A DNA stretch of 35,629 nucleotides, from contig JBOFJB010000371.1 of assembly GCA_051650465.1 (NCBI GenBank), forward strand, positions 1 to 35,629, written 5' to 3'. This DNA comes from Dermatophilaceae bacterium. Lineage in GTDB: Bacteria; Actinomycetota; Actinomycetes; Actinomycetales; Dermatophilaceae. Positions 3,125 to 26,414 of the stretch are shown here, piece after piece; position 1 is the stretch's first letter, and every line of letters starts with the position of its first letter. The notes beneath the pieces were generated by a model that saw nothing but the letters and a program-made list of their open reading frames with translations, ran no database searches and was not told where the DNA came from. The translations under genes and the position numbers were made by a program.

Positions 3125-3408
3125 CCTCACCCGCCGAGAACCAGGACACCCCGCGTACCTGGAAGAGCTCACCTGCCCTTGCTGCATTCCTGCCCTGGGG
3201 GAGTTCGGCGAGGTACCACCACGCGGGGTGCCGGGCCTGATTCTAGGCGCGCGGCGCCATCCGTAGAAATCGGCGCCGACCGGGAGCCAACGGTCGAAGC
3301 ACCCCCTACCGCCCAGCGCCCGCGGCCCCGACTACCCCGCCTCCGACCCCGGCGACCGGCCCTCAGGCCGGAACGCCACACTGGCGGAACCCGATCCGGA
3401 GGAGACCG

Positions 3409-7467: not shown

Positions 7468-7482
7468 TGATATTCATTATCA
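7468..7482. promoter_or_regulatory. Fur-family 7-1-7 operator candidate in the divergent ligase/NRPS promoter
   Basis: TGATATT-C-ATTATCA matches the classical 7-1-7 Fur box TGATAAT-N-ATTATCA with 1 mismatch in 14 defined positions. The 19-mer gagtatgatattcattatc matches GATAATGATAATCATTATC at 16/19. It lies in the only AT-rich patch of the 54-bp intergenic region and overlaps -10-like hexamers (TATGAT on plus, CATACT on minus). Confidence 0.6.
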
Positions 7483-12319: not shown

Positions 12320-13029
12320 CCGGCGTGCCCGTCTTCTGCTTCCCCCACGCCGGCGCCACCTCGGCGACGATGCGGCACTGGCCGGCGCTCTCCGGCGCCG
12401 ATCTCGACATCCGGCCGGTGGACCGCCCGGGACGTGGCCGCCTGGGCCGGGAGCCGGCCGGGCGCGACGCCGACGCCGTGGTGGCGCGCAGCGCCGAGGT
12501 CGTCGCGGAGCAGGTGCGGCCCGGCGACCGGTGGGTGTGCCTCGGACACAGCTTCGGCTCCCTGCTCGCCGCGGCCACGGCCGCCGAGGTGGCGCGGCGC
12601 ACCGGTCACGCCGCCGACCTCGTCGTGGTGTCGGCCGGCCCGCCCCCCGCCTGGCAGCCCACCGAGGACGAGATCGCACCCCTGGACGACGCCGCGCTCG
12701 ACGACCATCTCGTCGGCATCGGCGACACCCCGCGCACCGTGCTCGCGGGCCCGCTCGGCGCGGTGCTGCGCCGCCACTTCCGTGAGGACCAGGCGCTGCG
12801 GTGCCAGCTCGCCGGCCGACGCGACCTCAGGCTCACGACCGGGCTGCTCGCGGTCGCCGCCAGCGAGGACCCCTACGTCCCGGCCGGGCGGATGGCCGAC
12901 TGGGCGCCGCACACCAGGGGCCCGTTCGACCAGCTGACGGTCCACGGCGACCACTTCGCCGTGGTGCGCGACCCGAGCGAGGTGCTGGCCGTCATCCGCG
13001 GCAGGGTGCTGGAGGGGAGCCGAGCATGA
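12316..13029 (+). CDS. Type II thioesterase; HlmC-like
   Basis: VFCFPHAGATSATMRHW and the GHSFG nucleophile elbow are present. There is an ATGA overlap with the GMC gene stop. Confidence 0.85.
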   Translation: MTGVPVFCFPHAGATSATMRHWPALSGADLDIRPVDRPGRGRLGREPAGRDADAVVARSAEVVAEQVRPGDRWVCLGHSFGSLLAAATAAEVARRTGHAADLVVVSAGPPPAWQPTEDEIAPLDDAALDDHLVGIGDTPRTVLAGPLGAVLRRHFREDQALRCQLAGRRDLRLTTGLLAVAASEDPYVPAGRMADWAPHTRGPFDQLTVHGDHFAVVRDPSEVLAVIRGRVLEGSRA

Positions 13030-14159
13030 CCACGACGACCCTCCCTGGGCTCGACACCTTCCGGGCCACGGTGCGCGAGGTGCTGCACGAGCACGCCACG
13101 CCACACCACGACGCGTGGGAGCGCGAGGGGCGGACGCCGCGCGAGTTCTGGCGTGCCGCGGGCGCGGGCGGCCTGCTCGCGCCGGCCGCACCCCCGGAGC
13201 TCGGCGGTGCCGGGCTCACCGACCCGAGGTACGCGGCAGCCGTCGCGGAAGAGCTCGTGCGGGCCGGGCTGACCGCGCCCGGGATCGTCGCGCACAACGA
13301 CGTGGCGACCTCGTACGTCCTCGGCCGGGGCAGCTCCGAGCAGCGACGACGGTGGATGCCGGGCCTGGTCACCGGGGAGTGTGTGGCCGCCATCGCGATC
13401 ACCGAGCCGGGGGGTGGCTCCGACGTCGCAGCCATGGCCACCACGGCACGCCGCGACGGCGACCACTATGTGCTCGACGGCCGGAAGTCGTTCATCACCA
13501 ACGGCGAGACGGCCGATCTCGTGGTTGTCGCGGCCCGCACCGGCGACGGCCCGCGGGGCCTCAGCCTGGTCGTGGTGGAGCGGGGGACGCCGGGGCTCAC
13601 CCGTGGCGAGCAGCTCCCCACCCTGGGCTGGCGGGCGAACGACACCTGCGACCTGCGGTTCGACGGATGCCGGGTGCCGGCCGCCAACCTGCTGGGTAGC
13701 GAGGGCGCGGCCACCGCGGTGCTCATGCGCGCACTGCCCGCGGAGCGGGTGAGCATCGCGACGGTCGCGGTGACCTCGGCCGAGATGACCCTCGCCGCGG
13801 CCTTGACCCACGCACGCACCCGGACCGCGTTCGGCGGACCGATCGGCAGCCTTCAGCACAACCGGTTCGTGCTCGCGACGCTGGACACCGAGGTCACCAT
13901 CGCCCGGGTCTTCCTGGACCACTGCCTCGCGCAGCACGCCGCCGGCCGGCTCTCGGTCGCCGACGCGGCGAAGGCGAAGTGGTGGTGTACCGAGCTGCAG
14001 ACCCGCGTCGCCGACCGTGCCGTGCAGCTGCTCGGCGGACGCGGCTACCTCGACGACAACCCGGTGTCGCGGGAGTGGCTGAACAGTCGTGTGCAGACCA
14101 TCTACGGCGGCCCGACCGAGGTGATGAAGGAGCTGATCGGCCGCTCGCTCGGCCTCTGA
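13026..14159 (+). CDS. Acyl-CoA dehydrogenase family flavoenzyme; HlmB-like
   Basis: AAIAITEPGGGSDVA, KSFITNG and a C-terminal TIYGGPTEVMKELIGRSL are present. There is an ATGA overlap with the thioesterase stop. Confidence 0.9.
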   Translation: MTTTTLPGLDTFRATVREVLHEHATPHHDAWEREGRTPREFWRAAGAGGLLAPAAPPELGGAGLTDPRYAAAVAEELVRAGLTAPGIVAHNDVATSYVLGRGSSEQRRRWMPGLVTGECVAAIAITEPGGGSDVAAMATTARRDGDHYVLDGRKSFITNGETADLVVVAARTGDGPRGLSLVVVERGTPGLTRGEQLPTLGWRANDTCDLRFDGCRVPAANLLGSEGAATAVLMRALPAERVSIATVAVTSAEMTLAAALTHARTRTAFGGPIGSLQHNRFVLATLDTEVTIARVFLDHCLAQHAAGRLSVADAAKAKWWCTELQTRVADRAVQLLGGRGYLDDNPVSREWLNSRVQTIYGGPTEVMKELIGRSLGL

Positions 14160-14172
14160 CCAGGGCCTCTTC

Positions 14173-14280
14173 CCGAACCGACCGAACCGACGATCCCGAC
14201 CAACCAGCCGAACCCGACCGAACCGACGATCCCGACTAACCCGCCGAACCCGACCACAGCGACCCGAACCGACCGAACCC
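14173..14280. repeat. About 36-bp tandem repeat, about 3 copies, rich in CCGAAC/CCGACC hexamers; lies in the only sizeable gap of the operon
   Basis: The copies are ccgaaccgaccgaaccgacgatcccgaccaaccag, ccgaacccgaccgaaccgacgatcccgactaacccg and a degenerate third copy. Confidence 0.8.
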
Positions 14281-14315
14281 GCGCTGATCCCGATCCGACC
14301 CAGCAGGAGGACACG

Positions 14316-15230
14316 ATGACCACCGTCGACGACTCGTTGCAGCACCACAACCGCGAGGCCGGCCGCAGCACCTACGACATGTCCGGCTTCACCGTCGAGG
14401 TCGCCACCGCGCAGGACTGGCAGATCGTCACCGAGTGGGGCAACGGCGAGAACTGGAACATCGGCCCCCAGGACGCCGAGTGCTTCCGGACGATCGACCC
14501 GGAGGGCTTCTTCCTCGGCCGGGTCGAGGGCCGGCCGGTGTCGGCGGTCTCGCTGCTCAACTACTCCGACGACTTCGCGGTGTGGGGCCACTACCTCGTC
14601 GCACCCGACGAGCGCGGCAAGGGTTACGGCATCGAGGTGTGCAAGACCGCCAGCCGGCACTCCGGCCAGCGGGTCACCGCCGGTGACGCGATGCCCGAGC
14701 AGGTCGACAACTACGCCAAGGACGGCTCCCGGCCCGCGCACCGCACCGTGCACTGGTTCGGCACGGTCGCCCCGACCGACTCGGAGCCGGCGGACAGCAT
14801 CCGCGAGGTGACCGCGGCCGACCTGAATGCCGTCGCCGACTACGAGGCCGAGGCGTTCCCCGCCCACCGCCGCCGGTTCCTGGAACGGTGGCTCTTCGCC
14901 GACGGGCACCGCGCGCTGCTCGCGACCGGCGCGGATGGCGCGGTCGCCGGCTTCGGCGTGGTGCGGCCTGCACCGCGGGGCCATCGGGTCGGCCCGCTGG
15001 TGGCGAACACGCCGGAGCTGGCCGGGGCGCTGCTGCGCGCCCTGGTCGCCGGACTGCCCGCGGGAGAGGAGCTGTCGGTGTTCGCACCCGACCACAACGA
15101 GGCGACCGAGGGCCTGCTGCGCTCGGCCGGCCTCGCCCCGCACTTCCACGTGGTGCGCATGTATCGCGGCGAGCCGCGTCCGCACCACGCCGAGCGGGTC
15201 TACGCCATCAGCAGCCTGGAGGTGGGCTGA
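14316..15230 (+). CDS. GNAT-family N-acyltransferase (two-lobed); candidate HlmA/HolE-type holothin acyltransferase
   Basis: ATG lies 6 nt after AGGAGG. HYLVAPDERGKGYGIEV is a GNAT motif-A-like Q/RxxGxG/A segment, and the C-terminal half resembles the second acetyltransferase-like lobe. The functional assignment rests on context only. Confidence 0.7.
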   Translation: MTTVDDSLQHHNREAGRSTYDMSGFTVEVATAQDWQIVTEWGNGENWNIGPQDAECFRTIDPEGFFLGRVEGRPVSAVSLLNYSDDFAVWGHYLVAPDERGKGYGIEVCKTASRHSGQRVTAGDAMPEQVDNYAKDGSRPAHRTVHWFGTVAPTDSEPADSIREVTAADLNAVADYEAEAFPAHRRRFLERWLFADGHRALLATGADGAVAGFGVVRPAPRGHRVGPLVANTPELAGALLRALVAGLPAGEELSVFAPDHNEATEGLLRSAGLAPHFHVVRMYRGEPRPHHAERVYAISSLEVG

Positions 15231-15691
15231 TGGCCGAGGTGCCCACCCTGTACGAGTGGGTGGGCGGACAGCAGGTGCTGGACCGGCTGATGACCGAGTT
15301 CTATCGCACCGTGCGGCAGGACGAGCTGCTCAGGCCGCTGTTCGCCCACATGCCCGCCGACCACCCGCAGCATGTCGCGATGTGGTTCGCCGAGGTGTTC
15401 GGCGGCCCCGCCCGCTACTCCGCCGAACGCGGTGGCTTCGCGGTGATGCGCGGCCATCACGTCGGGAAGGACATCACGCCGGAGCAGCGTGAGCGATGGG
15501 TGAGCCTGCTGCTGCGCGCGGCCGACACCGTCGGCATCCCGGATGACGCCGAGTTCCGGTCCGCGTTCGCCGCGTACGTGGAGTGGGGGTCCCGGCGGGC
15601 GATGGCGAACTCCAGGCCGGGCGCGCCCCTGTCGTCCCGCACCGACGCACCGATCTGGGGCTGGGGCGAGGCCCCGCCCGGCACCGACTGA
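15230..15691 (+). CDS. Group II truncated hemoglobin-like globin; HlmG-like
   Basis: PTLYEWVGGQQVLDRLMTEFYRTVRQDELLRPLF and HVAMWFAEVFGGPARY are typical of trHb/YjbI-type globins. The ATG shares 1 nt with the GNAT stop (TGATG). Confidence 0.8.
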   Translation: MAEVPTLYEWVGGQQVLDRLMTEFYRTVRQDELLRPLFAHMPADHPQHVAMWFAEVFGGPARYSAERGGFAVMRGHHVGKDITPEQRERWVSLLLRAADTVGIPDDAEFRSAFAAYVEWGSRRAMANSRPGAPLSSRTDAPIWGWGEAPPGTD

Positions 15692-15704
15692 GTGAGGACA
15701 CCGA

Positions 15705-16613
15705 ATGCACACCTGTGACGTCGCGGTCGTCGGCGGCGGCGCCGCCGGCCTGACCGCGGCCCTGCTGCTCGCCCGCGCCCGCCGCGACGTGGTCGTCGTC
15801 GACGCGGGCGAGCCGCGCAACGCGCCGGCACTCCATGCGCGGGGCTACCTGAGCCGGGACGACAGCTCGCCCGCGGACATCCTCGCCGCCGGGCGGGCCG
15901 AGGTGGTCGGGTACGGCGGCACGGTCCGCGAGGGCCGCGTCGACCGGGTGGATGCCGAGCGGACCCTGCATCTCGCGGACGGCGAGCGCCTGCGGGCCGC
16001 GCGGGTGCTGGTGGCGACCGGGCTGGTCGACCGGCTGCCGGCCGTGCCGGGTGTTGCGGAGCGGTGGGGCCGCGACGTGCTGCACTGCCCGTACTGCCAC
16101 GCGTGGGAGGTGCGTGACCAGCCGCTCGTCGTACTCGGGACCCATCCCAACGCGGTGCACCACGCGCTGCTGCTGCGGCAGTGGAGCGCCGAGGTGACCC
16201 TCGCCACGCACGAGCTGGACCCCACGGCCGAGGACCGGGTCGCGCTGGCCGCCCGCGGCGTGGCCGTCGCCGAGGGCCCGGTGGCCGAGGTGGTGGTCGG
16301 CGGCGACGCGGTCACCGGCGTTCGGGTGGATGGCGAGGTGCACCCGTGCCGCGCGGTGTTCCTCTTCCCCCACATGGCGCCGCGCGACGACTTCCTGGGC
16401 GAGCTGGGCGTCGAGCGCGACCCGCGCGGCTTCCCGGTCGTCGACGCGGGCGGCCGCACCTCGGTGCCGTGGGTCTACGTCGCCGGCAACGCGACCGACC
16501 CGCGCGCCCAGGTGGTCACCGCCGCCGGACAGGGCTCCGCCGTCGCGTTCGCACTGCACAACGAGCTGGTCGCCGACGAGGTCGCCCGCGCCGTCGCGGA
16601 GCACGGGCGATGA
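15705..16613 (+). CDS. Thioredoxin-reductase-like FAD oxidoreductase with CPYC redox motif; candidate HlmI/GliT/DepH-type dithiol oxidase
   Basis: DVAVVGGGAAGLTAALLLAR is the FAD fold, and HCPYCHAWE is a CxxC redox centre. The size is about 300 aa. Confidence 0.85.
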   Translation: MHTCDVAVVGGGAAGLTAALLLARARRDVVVVDAGEPRNAPALHARGYLSRDDSSPADILAAGRAEVVGYGGTVREGRVDRVDAERTLHLADGERLRAARVLVATGLVDRLPAVPGVAERWGRDVLHCPYCHAWEVRDQPLVVLGTHPNAVHHALLLRQWSAEVTLATHELDPTAEDRVALAARGVAVAEGPVAEVVVGGDAVTGVRVDGEVHPCRAVFLFPHMAPRDDFLGELGVERDPRGFPVVDAGGRTSVPWVYVAGNATDPRAQVVTAAGQGSAVAFALHNELVADEVARAVAEHGR

Positions 16614-17632
16614 CCGGGGCCGACGCCGCCTGGCGGCTGTGGGAGATGAGCGACCTGACCGCGCCGTGGGCGCTGCGGGTCGTGTGCACCCTCGGCGTCG
16701 CCGATCTCGTGGCCGACGGCTGCGACCGGGTGGACGACCTCGCCGAACGGACCGGCACCGACGCCGCCGCCCTGGCCCGGGTGCTGCGCCACCTCGCTGC
16801 GCGAGGCGTGGTCGCCGAGCCGGAACCGGGTCGGTTCTCGCTCACCGAGGCCGGGGAGTGCCTGCGCGACGGCCACCCGAGCCGGATGCGGGAGTGGCTG
16901 AGCACCGACGGCGCGGCCGGCCGCATGGACGAGGTGTACGCGGCGCTGCTGACCAGCGTCCGCACCGGCGAGCCCGCGTACCGCGCGATCCACGGCCGGT
17001 CGTTCTACGACGACCTTCACGCGCAGCCCGCCCTGCAGCGCTCGTTCGACGAGCTGATGCGCGAGGACTCGGTGGACTACGCCCCGATCGTCGAGCAGCA
17101 GGACTGGTCGACCACGCGGCACGTGGTGGATGTCGGCGGCGGCCACGGCGAGCTGCTCGGGCACCTCCTGCGCACCCACGAGCACCTGCGCGGCACGCTC
17201 TTCGAGCTTCCCGGCACGGCCGACGCGGCGCGCGCGCATCTCGCCCCGCTCGGCGACCGTGCCGCCGTCGAGGCAGGCTCGTTCCTCGACGGGGTGCGGC
17301 CGGCCGGAGCCGACGGCTACGTCCTGGCGTCCGTGCTGCACAACTGGAGCGATGCCGACGCGGCCACCATCCTGCGCCGCGTCGCCGAGGCCGCCGCCCC
17401 CGGCGCGCGGGTCCTCGTCGTGGAGAACGTCGTCGACGAGACCACCGACTCCAGGTGGGTCACCCACCTGGACCTGAAGATGCTCGTGCTGCTCGGCGGC
17501 CGCGAGCGCACCGTCGCGGAGTACGAGGCGCTGGGCGAGGCCACCGGGCTGCGCGCGACCGGCGCCACGGCGGTCGCCCGCGGACCGTTCATGCTGCCCA
17601 GCGCGGTGATCGGGTTCACCGCCGGTGGATGA
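16610..17632 (+). CDS. SAM-dependent methyltransferase, COMT/Methyltransf_2 type with N-terminal winged-helix dimerisation domain
   Basis: VVDVGGGHGELL is the SAM motif I, and VLHNWSDADA is the LHDW-type catalytic His segment. There is an ATGA overlap with the upstream flavoenzyme. Confidence 0.85.
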   Translation: MTGADAAWRLWEMSDLTAPWALRVVCTLGVADLVADGCDRVDDLAERTGTDAAALARVLRHLAARGVVAEPEPGRFSLTEAGECLRDGHPSRMREWLSTDGAAGRMDEVYAALLTSVRTGEPAYRAIHGRSFYDDLHAQPALQRSFDELMREDSVDYAPIVEQQDWSTTRHVVDVGGGHGELLGHLLRTHEHLRGTLFELPGTADAARAHLAPLGDRAAVEAGSFLDGVRPAGADGYVLASVLHNWSDADAATILRRVAEAAAPGARVLVVENVVDETTDSRWVTHLDLKMLVLLGGRERTVAEYEALGEATGLRATGATAVARGPFMLPSAVIGFTAGG

Positions 17633-18632
17633 CGCTCCGGCTCGCCCTCGCGCGCCGCGGTGGCTCGGCCCCGTGCTCTCCTTCGCCGCCTCGGCCGTGA
17701 CGCTGACCGTGCTGTGCGTCGTGCTCCCCCGGGTCATGCCGGGCGATCCGCTGTCGGCGCTGTGGACCGAGGGGGCGCGGGAGTACGTGTACGACGACGC
17801 CGAGCGCGCCGCGCTCCGGGCGTCCTACGGTGGCGACCGGCCGCTCGCGCAGCAGGTCGTGGGCGATCTCGGCAGGCTGTTCGGTGGCGACCTCGGCGTG
17901 TCGATCCGATACGACGAGCCGGTCGCGGGTCTGCTCGGCGAGCGGCTGCCCCGCACCGTGCTGCTCGTGGGCTCGGCGATGGTGCTCGGCGTGACCCTCG
18001 GGGCGTCCGGCGGCGCCGTCGCCGGGTGGTGGCGGGGCGGGCCGATCGACCGTTCGGGGCTCGCCGTCGTGACGCTGGTGCGCGCGACGCCGACGTTCTT
18101 CCTCGCGGCCCTGGCGTTGTACGCGTTCGCGGTCCACCTGTCGTGGTTCCCGGTCTCGGGTCACGCGTCGCCGTTCCGCGAGCCGGATGCCGGGCCCCTC
18201 GCGGTCGTGGGCGACCTGCTCCATCACCTGGCGCTACCGGCCGCGGTGCTGGCGGCTACCGTCGCCGCCGGGCAGTTCCTCGTCCTGCGTGCCTCCATGC
18301 TGACCCAGCGTCGGGCCAGGCACCTGCTCGGCGCCCGCGCCCGCGGGGCGAGCGAAGGCCAGGTGCTGCGCCGGCACGCCGCACGAGGGGCCGCCCCGCC
18401 CGGGGTGGCGCTGGCCGGCATCCAGGCGGGTGCCGTGATGACCGGCGCGGTGGTGGTGGAGTCGGTGTTCGCGTACCCGGGGCTCGGTGAGCTGCTGGTC
18501 GATGCCGTCTCCTACCGCGACTACCCGGTGATGCAGGGCGCGTTCCTCACCCTGACGCTGACCGTCCTGGTCGCGAACCTGGCGGCCGACCTCGCGCTGC
18601 GCCGGCTGGACCCCAGGGTCGGGGCGCCGTGA
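17625..18632 (+). CDS. ABC transporter permease, DppB/OppB/NikB type
   Basis: VMPGDPLSALW is at the N-terminus, followed by multiple TM segments and SVFAYPGLGELLVDAV (EAA-region-like). The GTG start overlaps the methyltransferase stop by 8 nt. Confidence 0.85.
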   Translation: MDDAPARPRAPRWLGPVLSFAASAVTLTVLCVVLPRVMPGDPLSALWTEGAREYVYDDAERAALRASYGGDRPLAQQVVGDLGRLFGGDLGVSIRYDEPVAGLLGERLPRTVLLVGSAMVLGVTLGASGGAVAGWWRGGPIDRSGLAVVTLVRATPTFFLAALALYAFAVHLSWFPVSGHASPFREPDAGPLAVVGDLLHHLALPAAVLAATVAAGQFLVLRASMLTQRRARHLLGARARGASEGQVLRRHAARGAAPPGVALAGIQAGAVMTGAVVVESVFAYPGLGELLVDAVSYRDYPVMQGAFLTLTLTVLVANLAADLALRRLDPRVGAP

Positions 18633-19450
18633 GCGTGCGGCTGCGTCCGTGGCTGCCGGCCCTGCCGCTGGTGGTGCTGTCGGTGTGTGCGGTCGGTGCG
18701 CCGTGGCTCGCACCTGCCGACCCGGCCGCACCGATCGGCCCAGCACTGGCCGGCCCGTCGGCCGGACATCCGCTCGGCACGACGTCGATCGGGCAGGACG
18801 TGCTCTCCAGGGTCATGTGGGGCGGCCGGGTCTCGCTCACCGTCGCCGCAGTCGTCGCCGTGGCCTCGGTGTCGGTCGGGACCGTGGCCGGGGCCACCGC
18901 GGGGCTCCTCGACGGGCGCCTCGACACCACGGTGTGCCGTGTCGTCGACACCGTCGTGGCGGTGCCGCGACTGCCGCTGCTGGTCGTGGTGGCGGCGCTC
19001 GCCGGGCCGGGGCCGGTCACCGTCGCGCTCACGCTCGCTGCGCTCACCTGGGCTCCGGTGGCTCGAGTGGTGCGAGGCCAGGCACTCGCGCTGCGCACCG
19101 CCGGCCACGTGGCCGCCGCGCGTGGTCTCGGTGCCGGCCGCAGGCACCTGCTGCGCGTCCACGGTGTGCCCGCGCTGGTGCCGCTGGTCGGTGCGGAAGT
19201 GGCGACGGTCGCCGCCGGAGCCGTGCTCGCCGAGGCCGGGCTGGCGTTCCTCGGTCTCGCCGCCGGCGACACGGTGAGCTGGGGTGGCGACCTGCATCGC
19301 ACCCTCACCGAGCCGGGCGTGCTGCTGACCACGGCGTGGCTGTGGTGGGCCGTACCGACCGGGCTCGCCGTCACGCTGACGATCGGCTCGCTCGTCGCCG
19401 TGGGCGCACGGCTCGGCACCCCGTCCTCCCGCCTGGGGTGGTCGTCGTGA
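18629..19450 (+). CDS. ABC transporter permease, DppC/OppC/NikC type
   Basis: HPLGTTSIGQDVLSRVMWGGRVSL is the typical DppC N-terminal motif. There is a GTGA overlap with the upstream permease. Confidence 0.85.
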   Translation: MSVRLRPWLPALPLVVLSVCAVGAPWLAPADPAAPIGPALAGPSAGHPLGTTSIGQDVLSRVMWGGRVSLTVAAVVAVASVSVGTVAGATAGLLDGRLDTTVCRVVDTVVAVPRLPLLVVVAALAGPGPVTVALTLAALTWAPVARVVRGQALALRTAGHVAAARGLGAGRRHLLRVHGVPALVPLVGAEVATVAAGAVLAEAGLAFLGLAAGDTVSWGGDLHRTLTEPGVLLTTAWLWWAVPTGLAVTLTIGSLVAVGARLGTPSSRLGWSS

Positions 19451-21318
19451 CCGCGCTCCGGGTGCGTGACCTCCACGTCCGGCTCGGTGACCTGCCGGTG
19501 CTGGACGGCGTCGACCTCGACCTCTCCCGCGGCGAGGTCCTCGCGGTGGTCGGCGAGAGCGGCGCCGGCAAGTCGACCCTCGCCCTCGCCCTCGGCGGGT
19601 TGATCGACGACGGCCGGGTGACCGGCAGCATCCGGCTCGCCGACGACGTGGAGCTCGTGGGCGACCCACGGGCCGCGCACGAGGCGCGCGCCGAACGAGT
19701 CGCGGTCGCCCTGCAGGGCGCCCCGTTCGACCCGCTGCTGACCCTCGGTGAGCAGGTCGCCGCACCGTTGCGCCTGCGGCGTGGAGCGAGCCGGCGTGCG
19801 GCGGCCGCGGCCGCCGCCGAGCTCGCCGCCGAGGTGGGCCTGAGTCCGGAGCTGCTGCGGCGGCATCCGCACCAGACGTCCGGCGGCGAGCGCCGCCGCG
19901 CCGCCCTCGCCGCCGCGCTTGCCCTCGACCCGGAGGTGCTGGTCCTCGACGAGCCGACCGCCGGCCTCGACCCGGTCGGTGCGGCCCGGCTGGTCGCGAC
20001 CGTCGAGCGCCTCGCGGAGCACCGCGGCCTGGCCGTGCTGCTGGTCACCCACGCACTGGCCGAGGCGGCGCGGCTGGTTGATCGGGTGGCCGTCCTCTAC
20101 GCCGGCCGGGTGGTCGAGACGGGCGCGAGCCGGGCCGTGCTCGGTGACCCCGCCCACCCGTACACGGCCGCACTCGTCGGCAGCTACCCGGTGCTCACCA
20201 CGACGCGCGACCTGCGCCCGCTGCGCGGGACACCTCCCGACCCGGGCGACCGTCCGTCCGGATGTGCGTTCCACCCACGCTGCCCGCAGGCCGTGAGCCG
20301 GTGCCGCGAAGAGCCGGTCTCGCTCGCCCACGTCGGTGACCGCTCCCTGGCGTGCCACCTCGGCGGGCGGACCATCCGGCTCGACGCCACCCGCCTGACC
20401 GTGACCGCCGGCCGGGGACGCGACCGCCGCACCGTCCTCCACGAGGTGACCCTGCGGGTCCGCGCCGGGGAGGTGGTCGGCGTGGCCGGGCCGTCCGGCA
20501 GCGGAAAGACCACCCTCGCCCGCGCCCTCGCCGGACACCTCGCCCCCGACCGGGGCGAGGTCCGCTGCGACGGTCGCGTGCTCGGCACGGGGTGGTCCCG
20601 TGCCGACCGGGCGCAGCGTCGGCGGGTGCAGCTCGTGGCGCAGGACCCGTGGGAGTCGCTGTCGCCGCTGCGCACCGTGGCCGAGTCGCTGCGCGAGGCC
20701 GTCGACCTGGCCGATCCGCCATCGGCATCACCGACCGCGCCGGGCGAGCCGGGCGAGCCGGGCGAGCCGGGCGTGGCAGCGGGATCGACCGGACGAGCCG
20801 TGGCCGCGTCGCGGGACGCGCGGATCGTGGCGGCACTACGGGATGTCGGCGTCGCCCCGACCGAGCGCGTGCTGCGATCCCGGCCCGATGCGCTCTCCGG
20901 CGGTCAGCTGCAACGGATCTGCGTCGCGCGAGCGCTGCTCGCCGACCCTCTCGTCGTCGTCGCCGACGAGCCGACGAGCATGCTCGACCCCTCCGAGCAG
21001 GCCCGGCTCGCCGTCCTGCTCCGGGAGCGCCAGGCCGAGCTGGGGCTCGCCCTCGTGCTGGTCTCGCACGATCTCGCCCTGCTGCGCAAGGTCGCCGACC
21101 ACCTCGTCGTCCTGGACGACGGCCGGGTCGTCGACGCCGGCCCGACCGAGCGGGTGTGCCGCGAGCCGCGCAGCGAGACGGCCCGGGCGCTGCTCGCGGC
21201 GGCGCCCGCCCTCCCCCTCGCCGACGCCGTCGGCAGGTCGTCGGCACGATCCGCGGCCGACCCGTCGCCGCCGTCCGGCACCCGAGCCTCGTCACCGTCA
21301 TCCGACGCCCGCATCTGA
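19447..21318 (+). CDS. Fused double ATPase of a Dpp/Opp/Nik-type ABC importer (DppD-DppF fusion)
   Basis: There are two cassettes: GESGAGKST / SGGERRR / LVLDEPT and GPSGSGKTT / LSGGQLQR / VVADEPTS. An oligopeptide-type C-terminal segment AHPYTAAL...CAFHPRCPQA lies between them. The GTG start overlaps the permease stop. Confidence 0.9.
   Translation: MTALRVRDLHVRLGDLPVLDGVDLDLSRGEVLAVVGESGAGKSTLALALGGLIDDGRVTGSIRLADDVELVGDPRAAHEARAERVAVALQGAPFDPLLTLGEQVAAPLRLRRGASRRAAAAAAAELAAEVGLSPELLRRHPHQTSGGERRRAALAAALALDPEVLVLDEPTAGLDPVGAARLVATVERLAEHRGLAVLLVTHALAEAARLVDRVAVLYAGRVVETGASRAVLGDPAHPYTAALVGSYPVLTTTRDLRPLRGTPPDPGDRPSGCAFHPRCPQAVSRCREEPVSLAHVGDRSLACHLGGRTIRLDATRLTVTAGRGRDRRTVLHEVTLRVRAGEVVGVAGPSGSGKTTLARALAGHLAPDRGEVRCDGRVLGTGWSRADRAQRRRVQLVAQDPWESLSPLRTVAESLREAVDLADPPSASPTAPGEPGEPGEPGVAAGSTGRAVAASRDARIVAALRDVGVAPTERVLRSRPDALSGGQLQRICVARALLADPLVVVADEPTSMLDPSEQARLAVLLRERQAELGLALVLVSHDLALLRKVADHLVVLDDGRVVDAGPTERVCREPRSETARALLAAAPALPLADAVGRSSARSAADPSPPSGTRASSPSSDARI
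20742..20768 (+). repeat. In-frame 9-bp microsatellite (gggcgagcc x3) encoding PGEPGEPGEPG in a linker of the ATPase
   Basis: Read directly from the sequence. Confidence 0.8.
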
Positions 21319-21341
21319 CCACCACCATGTGAAGGAGCATC

Positions 21342-22997
21342 ATGTCCCGCCCCTCTCCCCTGACCCGACGGTCCACCCTCGGTCTGCTGCTCGCCGCCGG
21401 CGCCGCCCCGGTGCTGGGCGCGTGCTCGAGCGACGACGCCCCCGCGGCGCGTCGTGACGTCGCCCTCCGCCTGCCGGGGCAGGACGCCGGCGTGCCCACG
21501 CCGTTCACCTACCGCGGCGGGGTCGGCTTCACCCAGGCCAGCTACGTCTACGACACGCTGCTGTGGAAGGGCCCCTCCGGCGACTGGGTTCCCTGGCTGG
21601 CCGAGCGCCACGAGCGCGCCGACGACGGCCTCACCCACACCTTCACTCTGCGCGAGGGCGTCACCTGGTCCGACGGCCGGCCGTGCACCGCGGCCGACGT
21701 GGCGTTCACCTTCGAGTACCTGGAGCGCAATCGGACGAAGATCTCGCCGCGGGTGATCTCCGTGCCGCTGCCGGGGCTGGTCACCGCCGTCGGCGCCGTG
21801 GACGACCGCACGGTTCGCTTCACCCTGGCGCGGCCGGACTGGACGTTCGAGCGGTTCACCGCGGCCGGCGGCGTCTTCATCCTCCCCGAGCACGTGTGGT
21901 CGACCATCGCGGACCCCTCGACGGTGACCGACGTGGCCGCTCTCGTGGGTACCGGCCCGTTCCGGATCACCGCGATGGACACGAAGACCTTCGCCTACCG
22001 CTACGAGGCGCGCGACGACTTCTTCCTCGGCCGGCCGGTCGTGCGGACGATCGAGCACCTCCCGGTGGGCGACCCGCTCGCCGCGCTCGCCGCGGGCGAG
22101 GTCGACCAGGCCGGCGGGGTCGGGCCGGGCACCGGGTTGCGCCCGGAGGCGGTCAGGCCCTTCCGGAACGAGGAGTTCGAGATCGTCGAGGCACCACCGG
22201 GGCAGACGGTCACCGCGCTGTACTGGAACATCGCCGCCGGTGGCCCGCTCGCCGACCCGGTGTTCCGGCGGGCGTGCGCGCACGCGATCGACCGGGAGGC
22301 GCTCGTGGAGAAGGCGTTCGGCGGGGCCGGCACACCCGGCAGCCCGGGCCTGATCCCCGAGGGACACCCGATGCACGTCGAGGTCGAGCAGTACGCGTTC
22401 GACCGCTCGCGTGCGGAACGGCTGTTGGATGACGCCGGCTACCGGAGGCGAGGCGGCGGCATCCGAGCCAGCGCCGACGGCACAGCCCTGTCGTTCGAGC
22501 TGCTGCTGAGCAACGCGCAGCAGGACGCCGTCGTCGACCTCGTCGTGGCCGACCTCCGCGCGGTCGGCGTCGAGGTGCGGCCGGCGATGGTCGATCTCGC
22601 GACGTTCGGCGAGCGGCGGATGGCCGGCGACACCCAGCTCTCGGTGAACACCTTCGGTGGGACGGCGACCGACGAGCAGCCCGACGGGATGGGCAAGGTC
22701 TATGCGTCGACGTCCCGCTCGCTGCAGGCCGCGCAGGGCTACCGCAGCGCCGAGTTCGACCGGTTGCACACCCGGCAGCGCGGTCAGCTCGACGAGGCCG
22801 CGCGGGCAGCCACCGCGGCGGAGATGCAGCGCCTGGTCGCGGCCGACCTCCCCGTCCTCTCCCTGGTCTATCCCCCGCTGACCACGATCGTGCGGACCGG
22901 CGAGCTCGACGCCTGGGCCGACACGCCCGGTGGGGTCGGCGGTCTCGTGCCCAGCGTCAACAACAAGGTGACGTTCGTCCGCGGGAGCCGGCAGTGA
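21342..22997 (+). CDS. ABC substrate-binding lipoprotein, family 5 (peptide/nickel/opine-metal type)
   Basis: ATG follows GAAGGAG. There is a twin-arginine-like LTRRSTLGLL, then the lipobox LGAC. The 551-aa body has features typical of family-5 binding proteins. Confidence 0.9.
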   Translation: MSRPSPLTRRSTLGLLLAAGAAPVLGACSSDDAPAARRDVALRLPGQDAGVPTPFTYRGGVGFTQASYVYDTLLWKGPSGDWVPWLAERHERADDGLTHTFTLREGVTWSDGRPCTAADVAFTFEYLERNRTKISPRVISVPLPGLVTAVGAVDDRTVRFTLARPDWTFERFTAAGGVFILPEHVWSTIADPSTVTDVAALVGTGPFRITAMDTKTFAYRYEARDDFFLGRPVVRTIEHLPVGDPLAALAAGEVDQAGGVGPGTGLRPEAVRPFRNEEFEIVEAPPGQTVTALYWNIAAGGPLADPVFRRACAHAIDREALVEKAFGGAGTPGSPGLIPEGHPMHVEVEQYAFDRSRAERLLDDAGYRRRGGGIRASADGTALSFELLLSNAQQDAVVDLVVADLRAVGVEVRPAMVDLATFGERRMAGDTQLSVNTFGGTATDEQPDGMGKVYASTSRSLQAAQGYRSAEFDRLHTRQRGQLDEAARAATAAEMQRLVAADLPVLSLVYPPLTTIVRTGELDAWADTPGGVGGLVPSVNNKVTFVRGSRQ

Positions 22998-23974
22998 CCG
23001 GCGACGCGGGTGCGCCGGCACCGCTCGACACGACGCACCTCGGTGCGCTGGCCCCGCCCGGGTCACTCGTCGACTGGCGGCTCGCGGTCGCGTGGCGCGC
23101 GGCGAGCGAGAGCGACATCCTCGGTGCGCTGCCCGGGACCGTCGAGGATGTCGCCCGTCGGCGCGGTCTCGACCCGGGCGCGGCGCGGGCCGTCGTGCAC
23201 CTGATCGCGGTCTGGGGCCTGGTGACCGTGAACGGCGACGGGGTCGTCACCGCGGGCCCGCACGTGCTCACCCCGGCCGAGTCGGCCGCGCTGGCGCAGC
23301 ACGGCGTGTGGATCCACCGGTGGAGCGCGCTGACCGGCGAGCGGCTGCGGGACCGATCGGCGCCGGTCCCCGACACCTTGTGCCGCCCGACGACCGGCGA
23401 GGGGCTCAGGCTGCTGGCGGCGGCGAGCGCGCGGTCGATCGGGCCGGTCGTGGATGCGTGTCTCGCGGCCGTGCCGTCGGCGCGCACCGCGCTCGACCTC
23501 GGCGGCGGGCACGGCGAGCACTCGCTCGAGCTGGCGCGTCGCGGGCTGGCCGTCACGGTGCAGGACCTGCCGGAGGTGGTCGAGCTCGCCCGCGCCGACG
23601 GCCGTCTCCTCGAGGCCGGGGTCGGGCTGCACGCGCAGGACGCGTTCGACGGCGTTGCGGCCGGCCCGTTCGACCTCGTGCTCTGCTCGACGGTCACCAA
23701 CATGTTCGACGCGGATGCCGTCGTCCGGCTGGTGCGCGGAGCCCGGCCGGCGGTCGCCGCCGGCGGGGCGCTGGTCGTGGTCAGCTACCTGCGCGACCGC
23801 TCACCGGTCAGTGCGGTCTTCGGCGTGCAGATGCTGGTGTCGACGACGGGCGGGGACGCCCACGGCTCGAAGGACTACCGTGCCTGGCTCACCGAGGCGG
23901 GCTACGGGGAGGTGACCTTCCACGACCTGGGGACACCGGCGTTGACCGTCGTCGTCGCGCGCCCGGCGCCGTAG
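22994..23974 (+). CDS. Class I SAM-dependent methyltransferase with N-terminal winged-helix-like domain (second methyltransferase)
   Basis: ALDLGGGHGEHSLELARRG is the SAM motif I and VTVQDLPEVV is the acidic motif II. There is no LHDW-type His. There is a GTGA overlap with the binding-protein stop. Confidence 0.8.
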   Translation: MTGDAGAPAPLDTTHLGALAPPGSLVDWRLAVAWRAASESDILGALPGTVEDVARRRGLDPGAARAVVHLIAVWGLVTVNGDGVVTAGPHVLTPAESAALAQHGVWIHRWSALTGERLRDRSAPVPDTLCRPTTGEGLRLLAAASARSIGPVVDACLAAVPSARTALDLGGGHGEHSLELARRGLAVTVQDLPEVVELARADGRLLEAGVGLHAQDAFDGVAAGPFDLVLCSTVTNMFDADAVVRLVRGARPAVAAGGALVVVSYLRDRSPVSAVFGVQMLVSTTGGDAHGSKDYRAWLTEAGYGEVTFHDLGTPALTVVVARPAP

Positions 23975-24014: not shown

Positions 24015-24140
24015 CTCAGCCGTGGCGGGGCTCAGCCGTCCCGGCCGTGGCGGGGCTCAGCCGTCCCGGCCGTGGCGGGGCTCAGCCGTCCCGGCCGCTC
24101 CTGACCGTGGCGGCGCTCAGCCGTCTCGGCCGTAGATCTC
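24015..24140. repeat. 25-bp tandem array (about 4-5 copies, one with a 10-bp insert); the last copy is the stop codon plus last codons of the minus-strand HFCD gene
   Basis: The unit ctcagccgtcccggccgtggcgggg occurs at 24031-24055 and 24056-24080. A variant lies at 24081-24115. The copy starting at 24116 (ctcagccgtctcggccgtag) contains the stop codon and final codons of the HFCD gene. A partial copy lies at 24015-24030. Confidence 0.85.
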
Positions 24141-24698
24141 CCGCAACGCGGCCGTCACAGCCTCGGGCTCGGGCACGGCCGGGTGCGAGACCAGCTCGCC
24201 GGTCGCGACGTCGCGGCTGTCGTGCCACACCGGCTCGACCACGCGGTGGCCGTCGGCGCGCAGCTGGGCCACGTTGCGGGTCACCGCCGGGCTGGTCCAC
24301 ATGTGCGATCCCATGTGCGGCACGAACACCGAGCGGAACGCCGCCGACAGCACGACGGTGGTGAGCCGGTTGGGCGCGGCGCCGGTGGCCACCGCCGAGA
24401 GGGTGTGCGCGGTCGCGGGGAGCACGACGATGGCGTCGTGGTCGGCGGCGAGTCGTGACGGGCGGTCGGTCGGCCAGTCGGCCGGCTGCTCACCCGCGAC
24501 GACGTGCTCGGCCGAGAGCTGGGCCACGTGCGGCGGCAGGAACGTGGTGGCGGTGTGCGTCATCAGGACCGTGTAGGTGCCGCCGAACGCGGCGCGCATC
24601 GCGTCGAGGTAGCGCGGCAGCGAGGAGACGGCGATGGAGCCCGTCGCACCCACGAGGATCCTGGGACGCTCGGGCAGATGAAAATCATTCTCGTTCAC
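24117..24698 (-). CDS. HFCD-family flavoprotein (EpiD/MrsD/CoaC-like cysteine decarboxylase); HlmF-like
   Basis: RILVGATGSIAVSS, VVLPATAHTLSAVATG (PASANT-type motif), FVPHMGSHMW (PxMNxxMW-type motif) and LRADGHRVVEP are present and collinear with MrsD/EpiD. I chose the GTG 24698 start (MNENDFHLPERPRILVG). The track start at 24770 is a TTG and remains possible. Confidence 0.8.
   Translation of the reverse strand: MNENDFHLPERPRILVGATGSIAVSSLPRYLDAMRAAFGGTYTVLMTHTATTFLPPHVAQLSAEHVVAGEQPADWPTDRPSRLAADHDAIVVLPATAHTLSAVATGAAPNRLTTVVLSAAFRSVFVPHMGSHMWTSPAVTRNVAQLRADGHRVVEPVWHDSRDVATGELVSHPAVPEPEAVTAALREIYGRDG
24679..24693. promoter_or_regulatory. Second Fur/Zur-like 7-1-7 candidate overlapping codons 3-7 of the HFCD gene
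   Basis: The plus strand reads TGAAAAT-C-ATTCTCG. The left half is a perfect TGAAAAT, and the right half matches ATTTTCA at 5 of 7. The patch is encoded by four consecutive T-ending codons AAT GAT TTT CAT in a genome that otherwise prefers C-ending synonyms. Confidence 0.4.
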
Positions 24699-24795
24699 GA
24701 GACCATTCTGGGCGGCCGGCCGAGCCGCGGCAACCGCAATGCGCGGGACACCGTCGAGTGACGTCGACAAGCACGTCCGTCGCTACCCTTACGGC

Positions 24796-25119
24796 ATGAG
24801 GAGCGAGCCGACATCGGAGACGCTGCGGCTACGGGCGGTCCTCGATCGGCACCAGAGCGGTGTGGGCGCGGTGCTCGACCGGTTCGGCGCCACCAACCCG
24901 CGGTTGTTCGGGTCCGTCGCTCGCGGCGACGCTCGGGACGACAGCGATCTCGACCTTCTCGTCGACCTGAGTCCTGGCCGTGGCAACGAGCTGATGCGCG
25001 TTGCCGGCCTCGCCGAGGAGCTCAGCGAGCTTCTGGGGATTCGCGTCGATGTCGTGGCCGCGACGCTTCTCCGCGACAACGTCTCGGCCACCGCTCTCGA
25101 GGATGCCGTGGCCGTATGA
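24796..25119 (+). CDS. mntA: Nucleotidyltransferase-domain antitoxin (MNT/MntA type)
   Basis: LFGSVARGDARDDSDLDLLVDL is the GSxxRG...DxD minimal nucleotidyltransferase motif. The start is set at ATG 24796. Confidence 0.85.
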   Translation: MRSEPTSETLRLRAVLDRHQSGVGAVLDRFGATNPRLFGSVARGDARDDSDLDLLVDLSPGRGNELMRVAGLAEELSELLGIRVDVVAATLLRDNVSATALEDAVAV

Positions 25120-25430
25120 GCCGCTCGGACGCGCAGCGCCTGGACGACATCCGGTCGGCGATCTCGCGCTGCATCGCCTACCGCGACCATCTCGACTCCA
25201 CCGAGCTGGGCCCGATGGCCTACGACGCGGTGCTCCGCAACCTTGCCGTCGTCGGCGAGGCGGTCAAGGCCCTCCCCGACGACGTCAAGAAGGCCCACCC
25301 GGGCACGCCCTGGACCTCGATCGCCGGCCTGCGCAACGTCGTCGTCCACGAGTACTTCCGGGTCGACCCGGACCTGATCCGGGACATCGTCGACAACCAG
25401 CTGGCTCCGCTCCTGAACGACATCGGCTGA
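25116..25430 (+). CDS. hepT: HEPN-domain (DUF86) ribonuclease toxin (HepT type)
   Basis: RNVVVHEY matches the Rx4HxY HEPN motif. There is an ATGA overlap with the MNT gene. Confidence 0.85.
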   Translation: MSRSDAQRLDDIRSAISRCIAYRDHLDSTELGPMAYDAVLRNLAVVGEAVKALPDDVKKAHPGTPWTSIAGLRNVVVHEYFRVDPDLIRDIVDNQLAPLLNDIG

Positions 25431-25454: not shown

Positions 25455-26414
25455 TCAGCCGCCCGCCGAGCGGTCGCGGTACTCGCCCGGGGTCACGCCC
25501 ACCAGGGCGGTGAACTCGCGGATGAAGTGCGCCTGGTCGTACCAGCCGTAGCGGTGGGCGAGCTCGGTGAGCGTGCCGTCGAACCCGGCGTCGAGATCGG
25601 CGACCGCGTCGTGCATGCGGTACCGAGCGAGCACCCACTTCGGCCCCACCCCGACGTAGTGCGTGAACAGCCGCTGCAGCGTGCGCTGCGTCGTGCCACC
25701 GCGACGGGCGACCTCGGCCACCGTGAGCAGCGCCCGGTCGGCGAGCATCTGCGCGACCACCTCGAGCAGCAGCTCGTACCGCGGGTCGACATCGGGCCGG
25801 ATGCCGCCCAGCACCTCCTCGGCGATGCCCGCCCAGGCGCCGACGTCCTCGACGAGCGCCGGGTCGTCGAGCCGGGCGCACACGTCATCCGGGAGCACCT
25901 CGCGCGCGGGAAGCGTGCGGTCGGTCCATGCGGATGCCGCCCGGCCGGCGAGCGCGGCGAGCCCACCCGGGCGGAACCGCACGCCGGCGACCCGGCCCCG
26001 GCCGCGCACGTCGACGTCGAAGCGGCGGGTGACCACCCCGGTGACGACCAGCCGCTCCCCCGGCGGCACGTCGACCCGCGGGTGGGTCAGCACCTCCAGG
26101 GTGAGCGCGCAGGTGGGATGCGGCAGGGTTGCGCTGGCGAACCACCGTCCGTCGGGCAGGTCCCAGCGCAGCGACCAGTGGTTCTCGACCCAGGCCGCCA
26201 CCGGCGCCCCCGCGCGCTCCCGCCGCAGCGTCACGTGCCGGCCGAACTCCTCAGGCCGCAGGATGCCGGCGAACGACGCGGTGGCGGCCGGCTTCCGGCC
26301 CGATCCACCAACCGACGCCGCGTCCTGCTCGGGACGGACGCGACCGGTCGACCCCCGGGAATCTGTCGGGCTTGTCCTAGCCGGCACGGGCCCAGCGTAG
26401 GAGGGTCGCCTCAT
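25455..26414 (-). CDS. AraC-family transcriptional regulator
   Basis: The C-terminal double HTH reads LTVAEVARRGGTTQRTLQRLF ... LTELAHRYGWYDQAHFIREFTALVGVTPGEYR. The only in-frame ATG upstream of the conserved N-terminal domain is at 26414, and the start is uncertain. The 682-aa track ORF is a read-through artefact. Confidence 0.8.
   Translation of the reverse strand: MRRPSYAGPVPARTSPTDSRGSTGRVRPEQDAASVGGSGRKPAATASFAGILRPEEFGRHVTLRRERAGAPVAAWVENHWSLRWDLPDGRWFASATLPHPTCALTLEVLTHPRVDVPPGERLVVTGVVTRRFDVDVRGRGRVAGVRFRPGGLAALAGRAASAWTDRTLPAREVLPDDVCARLDDPALVEDVGAWAGIAEEVLGGIRPDVDPRYELLLEVVAQMLADRALLTVAEVARRGGTTQRTLQRLFTHYVGVGPKWVLARYRMHDAVADLDAGFDGTLTELAHRYGWYDQAHFIREFTALVGVTPGEYRDRSAGG

Follow-up and report, generated by a model that had tools for sequence, protein, structure and literature searches.

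The stretch of DNA considered here, referred to below as the window, is a contig of 35,629 nucleotides (35.6 kb, 74% GC) from a Dermatophilaceae metagenome-assembled genome (MAG), and its nearest relatives are two other Dermatophilaceae MAGs, represented by our loci L010 (proteins 91–100% identical) and L001/L011 (83–95% for most proteins). One long plus-strand operon, 7515–23974, runs through 13 genes from that of a nonribosomal peptide synthetase (NRPS) to that of a methyltransferase, MT2, joined by overlaps or short gaps, the sole wide gap being one of 156 nt upstream of the gene for an N-acyltransferase of the GNAT family. Next to the predicted biosynthesis of a dithiolopyrrolone (DTP), this operon encodes an ABC importer, and the association of the two is the subject of the present analysis. 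Domains of the importer and of the surrounding cluster were identified by Pfam and NCBIfam scans of the window proteins, and the gene junctions were read directly in the DNA; gene limits were set by Pfam matches and by comparison with the called genes of related loci, as the GC3 signal was too noisy. The importer genes and the two methyltransferase genes flanking them are as follows.

16610–17632, plus strand: MT1, a family-2 methyltransferase (Methyltransf_2 and Dimerisation domains)
17625–18632, plus strand: DppB/NikB-type permease, PermB (BPD_transp_1, 6.6e-36)
18629–19450, plus strand: DppC/NikC-type permease, PermC (BPD_transp_1, 3.7e-13)
19447–21318, plus strand: fused DppD-DppF-type double ATPase of 623 aa (two ABC_tran stretches and one oligo_HPY, 2.7e-19)
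21342–22997, plus strand: family-5 solute-binding protein, a predicted Tat-signal lipoprotein of 551 aa (SBP_bac_5, 5.9e-61)
22994–23974, plus strand: MT2, a methyltransferase (Methyltransf_2, _25 and _11)

The initial annotation had placed two DppB/C-type permeases, a fused ATPase and a Tat/lipobox family-5 binding protein at 17625–22997, between two methyltransferase genes and inside a DTP operon. All of these components are present according to Pfam, both flanking genes give Methyltransf_2 matches, and hlmA-I-type genes were identified around the importer. The overlaps of 8, 4, 4 and 4 nt and the gap of 23 nt described there were also found at the junctions: MT1 and PermB overlap by 8 nt, provided that the GTG at 17625 is the start, while the pairs PermB/PermC, PermC/ATPase and binding protein/MT2 each overlap by GTGA, and the 23-nt gap before the binding-protein ATG contains a GAAGGAG Shine–Dalgarno sequence.

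With two BPD_transp_1 permeases, an ATPase carrying ABC_tran and oligo_HPY domains, and a family-5 binding protein with a predicted export signal, these genes encode a complete PepT-type (Dpp/Opp/Nik; peptide/nickel/opine) binding-protein-dependent ABC importer. A role of this ABC system in export was considered and rejected, because the conserved Tat-lipoprotein binding protein and the BPD_transp_1 permeases define an importer. The top NCBIfam matches were Opp2B for PermB and Opp4C, followed by NikC, for PermC, all of them below the cut-offs. Two sets of Walker A, signature and Walker B motifs can be read in the fused ATPase. Its oligo_HPY stretch (residues 223–286, window positions about 20110–20300) lies in the N-terminal half and contains four cysteines (GCAFHPRC...SRC...ACH), which we take to be the 4Fe-4S-binding pattern of solved Dpp/Opp ATPases; the C-terminal half has no oligo_HPY-type extension. 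The N-terminus of the binding protein, MSRPSPLTRRSTLGLLLAAGAAPVLGAC, has a twin arginine and a lipobox cysteine, and the residues R9, R10 and C28 are conserved at a level of at least 90% in a 30-sequence alignment.

A search for homologues of the binding protein returned 137 proteins at E ≤ 1e-30, and the genomic context was looked at for 12 of them (P0007 gave no contig). The gene order HlmI–MT1–B–C–DF–binding protein recurs in five further DTP clusters, which are L001 (binding protein 89% identical to that of the window), L002/L003 (66%), L004 from Natronosporangium hydrolyticum (61%), L007 (55%) and L006 from Saccharopolyspora sp. CA-218241 (53%), and the arrangement is thus not a matter of chance. 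In L001, L002/L003 and L004 the gene after that of the binding protein is MT2; in L007 a longer MT2-like gene (561 aa) is located about 1.7 kb downstream on the opposite strand. L006 has no MT2 homologue and carries an amidase gene between the MT1 and permease genes (L006:5058-6503). The importer and MT2 are absent from the DTP clusters of two Amycolatopsis genomes (L012/L013) and of Photobacterium (L014), and, to our knowledge, from the published hlm and hom clusters. The expectation that orthologous clusters keep the transporter therefore holds for the five clusters named above and fails for those of Amycolatopsis and Photobacterium, so that the importer is a conserved accessory module of one DTP cluster lineage and not a universal part of DTP clusters. 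In this actinobacterial lineage, as judged from the gene overlaps, the importer–MT2 cassette is translationally coupled to biosynthesis.

The same cassette also occurs without DTP genes. Five contexts of this kind were found, namely L005, L008, L009, L095 and L096. Permeases and a binding protein with an adjacent MT2 gene are present in L005, L008 and L009, although the ATPase gene was not seen in L009. In L095 a permease pair adjoins one of the three binding-protein paralogues, and two MT2-like genes are located 0.9–1.6 kb from a binding-protein paralogue, the matching ATPase being not seen; L096 has just a binding protein and a fusion regulator discussed below. Thirteen contigs, matched by their identical lengths, are common to the lists of binding-protein and MT2 homologues. 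These gene neighborhoods show that the evolutionary unit is the importer together with MT2, a conserved cassette, putatively for uptake followed by methylation. A metagenome-contig search with the binding-protein alignment yielded mostly distant family-5 proteins (24–34% identity), the near ones being only L015–L017 and a fragment, L078, none with MT2, and the plasmid collection contained no MT2 homologue. Besides, an NRPS cluster of another kind (L097:2575-14711) encodes a binding protein of the same clade (42% identity) along with two permeases and an O-methyltransferase of the Dimerisation/Methyltransf_2 type, which means that the importer–methyltransferase pairing is not confined to DTP clusters. 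The L097 cluster also has a phosphopantetheinyl transferase (PPTase), A-T and A-C proteins, a DrrA-type exporter, a glycosyltransferase and a glyoxalase.

The genes surrounding the importer in the window are predicted, from their domains, to make up a complete hlmA-I-type DTP cluster. Together with the adjacent divergent and convergent genes they are listed below.

5931–7454, minus strand: AMP-dependent ligase (AMP-binding and AMP-binding_C; ATG at 7454)
7515–10739, plus strand: HlmE-like NRPS (GTG at 7515; AMP-binding at residues 477–838, AMP-binding_C, PP-binding; 91% identical in L010)
10733–12319, plus strand: HlmD-like GMC oxidoreductase (GMC_oxred_N, GMC_oxred_C)
12316–13029, plus strand: HlmC-like thioesterase (Thioesterase domain)
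13026–14159, plus strand: HlmB-like acyl-CoA dehydrogenase (Acyl-CoA_dh N, M and C-terminal domains)
14316–15230, plus strand: HlmA-like N-acyltransferase of the GNAT family (Acetyltransf_18, Acetyltransf_1)
15230–15691, plus strand: HlmG-like globin (Bac_globin)
15705–16613, plus strand: HlmI-like dithiol oxidase with a TrxR fold (Pyr_redox_2; CPYC in the translation)
24117–24699, minus strand: HlmF-like flavoprotein of the PPC-decarboxylase family (Flavoprotein domain; coaBC-type NCBIfam match)
25458–26339, minus strand: AraC-family regulator (84% identical to a DUF6597/HTH_18 protein of L001, weakly matching the AraC protein of L002)

Domain scans thus identified homologues of HlmA-G and HlmI in the window, and the HlmA-D, F and G set recurs in L002, L004, L006, L007, L012 and L014. 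The AMP-ligase gene, divergent from the NRPS operon, has counterparts in the Amycolatopsis DTP clusters, and the gene of the HlmF-like flavoprotein is convergent with the operon. The N-terminal part of the NRPS (about 476 residues, 7515–8945), presumed to be a Cy domain, gave no Pfam Condensation match at E ≤ 0.01; an LTDLQVAYLLG-type motif is found at its start. The HlmA-like GNAT shares 38–98% identity with the GNATs of other DTP clusters, and a profile search of the genome contigs with the GNAT alignment retrieved only five loci.

Two sites near the cluster, listed here, suggest a link with the Fur family of metal-responsive regulators.

7468–7482, no strand assigned: Zur-type 7-1-7 box TGATATTCATTATCA in the 60-nt divergent promoter of the AMP-ligase and NRPS genes
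24679–24693, no strand assigned: Zur-type box TGAAAATCATTCTCG, overlapping codons 2–7 of the hlmF-like gene

The existence of Fur-family boxes, assumed in the initial annotation, was borne out: there are two matches in the window against 0.00 expected from shuffled sequences, and the boxes recur in related clusters. Each differs by one mismatch from the published actinobacterial Zur core TGaNAANNNTTNtCA, both fit the motif tGaNNatSatNNtCa derived for Streptomyces coelicolor by chromatin immunoprecipitation (ChIP; PMC5472717), and they are the sole two strongly AT-rich palindromes near the cluster. The box of the NRPS promoter, TGATATTCATTATCA, is identical in L010. The box of the hlmF-like gene is found at the same place in L001 and at the equivalent place in L002/L003, where the encoded N-terminus is different (NENDFH vs. 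IDNGSR); the retention of the box despite the differing peptide suggests a constraint at the DNA level. In L006 a Zur-type site lies upstream of a neighboring UbiE-type methyltransferase gene, beside ArsR-family and P-type ATPase genes that adjoin the cluster (L006:13445-15866); an ArsR-family gene is also situated beside the hlmF-like gene of L007. Overall, Zur-type sites were found in the window, L001, L002/L003, L006 and L010, compared with a background of two strand-hits in 420 kb of unrelated high-GC loci, and four sampled cluster types have a Zur-type operator within or next to the cluster; a predicted Zur box at the promoter of the importer-containing operon itself was seen in the window and the near-identical L010 only. 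No Zur boxes were found in the Amycolatopsis clusters and L095–L097.

The stand-alone cassette of L005 deserves separate mention. In its 21.8 kb there are exactly three sites within two mismatches, all of them in promoters (0.66 expected by chance), and these promoters are the divergent one of the importer and the binding protein–MT2 genes, that of a FecCD-type chelate importer, and that of a cobW/ribosomal-L28 pair. In actinobacteria, the genes for COG0523 proteins and for paralogues of L28 are hallmark targets of Zur (PMC6103462). IdeR, Nur and PerR were also weighed as the regulators binding the boxes; the sites, including that of the cobW/L28 pair in L005, fit Zur, although another Fur-family member may act on them. 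There is no Fur-family gene among the scanned window proteins.

A different mode of control is predicted for more distant relatives. Fusion regulators of 639–664 aa, designated here MerR::SBP5, are encoded at L095:125-2044(-), L095:14238-16232(-) and L096:7929-9887(-). They combine a MerR helix-turn-helix/dimerization region with a complete SBP_bac_5 domain, which shares 38% identity with the window binding protein over residues 52–551. Each of these genes has a divergent promoter, containing CTTGAC...TTCAAG dyads, in common with the gene of a secreted binding-protein paralogue. MerR::SBP5 has the appearance of a transporter receptor turned into a one-component sensor, and the fusions together with the MerR-type dyads suggest that the system of L095/L096 responds to the ligand itself.

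As to the nature of this ligand, homology gives little guidance. The binding protein scored 108.5 bits with the CntA model NF047575 (cut-off 800), 107.6 bits with the NikA model TIGR02294 (cut-off 393) and 71.6 bits with the DppA model NF043070 (cut-off 1005), and is a member of none of these families; the scores with the CntA, NikA, TIGR04028, Opp4A, DppA and GsiB models are similar and all far under the curated cut-offs. The search of PDB sequences also gave similar scores for the solved structures of NikA, the Thermotoga mannoside binders and DppA, the matches to DppA, GsiB/GbpA (glutathione), CtaP (cysteine-associated) and NikA ranging from 1e-15 to 1e-28. The AF2 model of the protein (pLDDT 90.5) superposes comparably on AppA, NikA, DppA, chitin binders and CntA (TM about 0.7–0.78 for closed, liganded forms), and Foldseek against the PDB, with TM 0.63–0.78 and 17–24% identity among the 50 matches listed, did not separate metal-chelate, peptide and sugar binders. 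Since the scores are similar and below the cut-offs across families and the folds do not discriminate, the ligand cannot be read from homology. The protein was also checked for grouping with ordinary dipeptide permeases, and it does not group with them: it belongs to a clade of its own, its DppA score is far below the cut-off, and Arg355 of DppA, the anchor of the peptide carboxylate, aligns to Leu387, which is near-invariant in the clade. Asp408 of DppA, the anchor of the peptide alpha-amino group, aligns to Thr443 with Asp444 adjacent, the alignment being uncertain by one residue. In a neighbour-joining tree the DTP-linked binding proteins and the stand-alone protein of L005 form one clade in 200 of 200 bootstrap replicates, the L005 protein falling inside the window-type subclade in 117 of them. 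By these comparisons, the binding protein represents a separate clade, outside the NikA and CntA families and distinct from the ordinary dipeptide binders.

The two methyltransferases seem to have different roles. In the PDB search MT1 matched the aromatic O-methyltransferases NcsB1/DnrK at 2e-68 and the thiolutin N-methyltransferase DtpM at 1.5e-47, and it retains a DtpM-like His-Asn...Glu set (LHNW and GGRERT motifs), as described for DtpM (bioRxiv 10.1101/2024.01.12.575338). MT1 is probably a biosynthetic tailoring enzyme; it has a distant counterpart (about 36% identical) in the Amycolatopsis clusters lacking the importer. MT2 is just distantly related to the enzymes of the NcsB1/DnrK/DtpM type; it keeps the Asn and has Thr and Ala at the positions of His and Glu. 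S-methylation (bis-thiomethylation) of reduced holomycin takes place in S. clavuligerus, where the enzyme responsible has not been identified (PMC10500201), and MT2 or, less likely, MT1 is a candidate for this activity inside the cluster. The MT2 homologues P0149 and P0228 are fused to FmdE (PF02663), P0228 having also a zinc ribbon (zf-dskA_traR), and a free-standing FmdE/zinc-ribbon protein is encoded after the permeases at L095:5928-6569; this link may be a further hint of a metal.

The initial annotation had proposed that the product of the cluster is secreted, binds a metal and is taken up again as a metallophore. Of this proposal, the regulatory and syntenic parts received partial backing from the Zur-type boxes and the conserved gene order, while the ligand, its metal loading, the chemistry of MT2 and the dependence on Zur are inferred only. 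Still, we tentatively regard the re-import of a DTP-derived metal complex, followed by its methylation by MT2, as the most likely working model, well short of an even chance as it is. According to it, when zinc is scarce, Zur would come off its boxes in front of the NRPS gene and at the hlmF-like gene, and DTP synthesis would begin; once outside the cell, the ene-dithiol form of the DTP would chelate Zn(II) or some other thiophilic metal, and the resulting charged complex would be unable to diffuse back. The Tat-exported lipoprotein would capture this complex, the permeases and the ATPase would import it, and MT2 would methylate the thiol or thiols, so that the metal would be freed and the ligand kept from stripping zinc off the cell's own proteins. 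Stand-alone importer–MT2 cassettes in non-producers, such as L005, could be piracy versions of the system. The arguments are as follows. The biosynthesis of a chelator and a dedicated importer are encoded in one operon (7515–23974) with a predicted Zur-type box at its promoter, and reduced DTPs are described as tight zinc chelators in the work of Chan et al. (2017), as it is cited in PMC12288471 and PMC10500201. A cell with a high-affinity importer of the binding-protein type can be taken to want what it imports, and this speaks against pure detoxification. Since the importer is translationally coupled to DTP synthesis, a DTP-derived species is the most economical candidate; we infer that the charged metal complex of a reduced DTP is the species that would actually need a transporter.

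Several points weigh against this model. The HlmI-type dithiol oxidase encoded in the operon implies that the product should leave the cell as a non-chelating disulfide, and no extracellular reductase is evident. By sequence and by fold, binders of metal chelates are no closer to the binding protein than binders of peptides or sugars. No Zur boxes were found in L004, L007, L008 and L009, the sampled DNA of L004 and L007 excluding the NRPS promoter; the distant clade members of L095 and L096 are under MerR::SBP5 with MerR-type dyads and not under metal boxes; and, given L097, the ligand class of the clade may be wider than DTPs. The delivery of each metal ion at the expense of one NRPS product would be costly. 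Finally, control by zinc starvation has been reported for holomycin in Photobacterium and for gliotoxin as a matter of weapon timing, without a metallophore or uptake role in the account cited in PMC11317636, and therefore the boxes alone are no proof of metal recapture.

The latter observation also fits a metal-independent recapture, in which zinc starvation times production and the cassette retrieves hydrophilic DTPs (e.g., holothin, mixed disulfides, thiosulfonates) for remodelling, inactivation or recycling, no metal being delivered. This explanation, which we consider a strong rival and a real if doubtful possibility, would make good sense of the HlmI gene, favoring a disulfide product, of the amidase encoded between MT1 and the permease in L006, suitable for the processing of an imported N-acyl DTP, of the relatives with MerR::SBP5 regulators and no Zur boxes, and of S-methylation, a known self-protection route for holomycin intermediates (PMC10500201). 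However, neutral DTPs are assumed to need no transporter for crossing a membrane, so that detoxification would hardly call for a high-affinity importer, and the stand-alone cassette of L005 lies in a metal-uptake island, where it shares its box type with cobW/L28.

The import of supplies for production (cysteine peptides, disulfides of the cystine or glutathione type, or Ni/Co), with MT2 as a second tailoring enzyme, is in our opinion unlikely, although the DTP core is built from two cysteines and family 5 includes DppA, GsiB/GbpA, CtaP and NikA, all matched by the binding protein as mentioned above. All equivalog scores are far under the cut-offs, the Arg355 of DppA is replaced by Leu, the inheritance of the clade is closely tied to that of MT2, also in loci that lack biosynthetic genes, and the existence of cytoplasmic MerR::SBP5 sensors in the same superclade speaks for a specific small molecule and not for bulk peptides. 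These sensors, divergent from paralogous binding proteins in L095/L096, might be taken to indicate that the product, or a derivative of it, comes back into the cell as a signal, either an autoinducer or a cue of competition, which MT2 then ends; the family-5 protein AapF does bind a signalling molecule (PDB 7kz9). We find this quite improbable for the window, which has no regulator of the MerR::SBP5 type, only an AraC-type gene, and where the cluster is flanked by Zur-type boxes and not by ligand-responsive operators. As for a chance insertion of an ordinary peptide permease operon with no functional tie to the cluster, the DTP clusters of Amycolatopsis and Photobacterium do work without an importer; nevertheless, such an insertion is contradicted by the synteny conserved across clusters and is hardly credible, as the position and the translational coupling persist where the binding proteins are only 53–66% identical and the overlaps were read directly.

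Several further features of the window and of related loci lie outside the operon. An MNT (NTP_transf_2)/HepT toxin–antitoxin pair adjoins the cluster at 24739–25430, and its nucleotidyltransferase gene is kept in L001. The left flank (2348–3876), like that of L001, encodes a DsbA/FrnE-like thioredoxin-fold protein, which has CPFC at the N-terminus and no signal peptide and looks cytoplasmic, and a DUF3817 membrane protein. A gene of the RrnaAD (rRNA adenine dimethylase) family adjoins the DTP cluster in L001 (13948-14460(-)), L002 (15377-16195(-)) and L003 and is absent from the window; it recalls the self-resistance of Yersinia ruckeri by the RNA methyltransferase Hom12. Neither in the operon nor elsewhere in the window was an HlmH-type MFS exporter seen, the possible exporters outside the operon being an ABC ATPase (109–897) followed by a 475-aa protein without a Pfam match (together 109–2314) and an AEC-family (Mem_trans) protein (26947–27891). 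A generic promoter and terminator scan of this high-GC DNA gave nothing useful.

In its logic, the system is closest to staphylopine CntKLM-CntABCDF(-CntE) of Staphylococcus aureus and then to Nik and the Zur-repressed coelibactin cluster. As in Cnt, a PepT-type importer with a family-5 lipoprotein receptor is encoded together with the biosynthesis of a small chelator and with Fur-family boxes, which in our case are predicted; CntA is, moreover, the top-scoring NCBIfam model for the binding protein, yet far below the cut-off. In contrast to Cnt, the candidate ligand is an NRPS-derived ene-dithiol and not an opine, the operon has no exporter, and there is an additional methyltransferase step; no homologues of CntK, CntL or CntM were found among the domain matches of the scanned window proteins. 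With NikABCDE, the importer of nickel/Ni-(His)2, the system shares the five-function architecture, NikA binding a metal chelate and not the bare ion, and liganded NikA superposes on the AF2 model with one of the highest TM-scores, 0.77 (Foldseek). However, the identity to NikA is about 20%, the ATPases of the window are fused, and the genes lie within a natural-product operon. The permease and ATPase families, the oligo_HPY with its four-Cys motif and the overall fold of the binding protein are those of DppABCDF/OppABCDF, while Leu387 at the position of Arg355 sets the binding protein apart from DppA. Coelibactin of Streptomyces coelicolor is the product of a Zur-controlled NRPS cluster and a candidate zincophore (PMC5472717, PMC6103462); both clusters are actinobacterial NRPS clusters with Zur-type boxes in their promoters, but their chemistry differs, and the coelibactin cluster, whose product and uptake route are also unproven, has no Dpp-type importer–methyltransferase cassette. 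The proposed role of MT2 resembles the SAM-dependent capping of a zinc-chelating dithiol by the gliotoxin bis-thiomethyltransferase GtmA/TmtA and the holomycin S-methyltransferase (PMC10500201), although MT2 has no sequence relation to GtmA detectable in the PDB search and its gene goes together with those of an importer instead of standing alone. The gene of the thiolutin N-methyltransferase DtpM lies away from the thiolutin cluster (bioRxiv 10.1101/2024.01.12.575338), whereas the window has two methyltransferases within the cluster. The latter, together with the ABC importer, the Zur-type boxes and the lack of an HlmH-type exporter in the operon, distinguishes it from the hlm holomycin cluster of Streptomyces clavuligerus and the hom, pyf and thiolutin clusters, with which it shares the homologues of HlmA-G and HlmI.

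DTPs such as holomycin and thiolutin are familiar chiefly as pro-drugs, which act as zinc chelators once they are in the target cell, and their natural role for the producers is unsettled. The conserved, co-translated importer and the Zur-type operators offer a concrete route by which producers might use DTP chemistry for their own metal supply. The literature searched contained no description of a Dpp-type importer in connection with a DTP cluster and none of DTPs as producer-side metallophores, which suggests that a metallophore-style operon for synthesis and uptake, based on DTP chemistry and with an added methylation step, is new. Cultivable carriers of the importer-containing DTP cluster are available in Natronosporangium hydrolyticum and Saccharopolyspora sp. 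CA-218241. Should the link to metals fail, the importer module would still mark a distinct subtype of DTP clusters for genome mining, and the importer–methyltransferase cassette together with the MerR::SBP5 regulators represents an uptake and sensing family widespread in Actinobacteria. One can go further and suppose, though we would call it more speculative than the working model above, that in some actinobacteria DTPs are true zincophores under the control of Zur, recaptured by the importer and relieved of their metal by SAM-dependent thiol methylation, with piracy cassettes, some of them in Zur islands, and MerR sensors of the same ligand class. If this is true, SAM-dependent thiol methylation would be a new mechanism of metal release.

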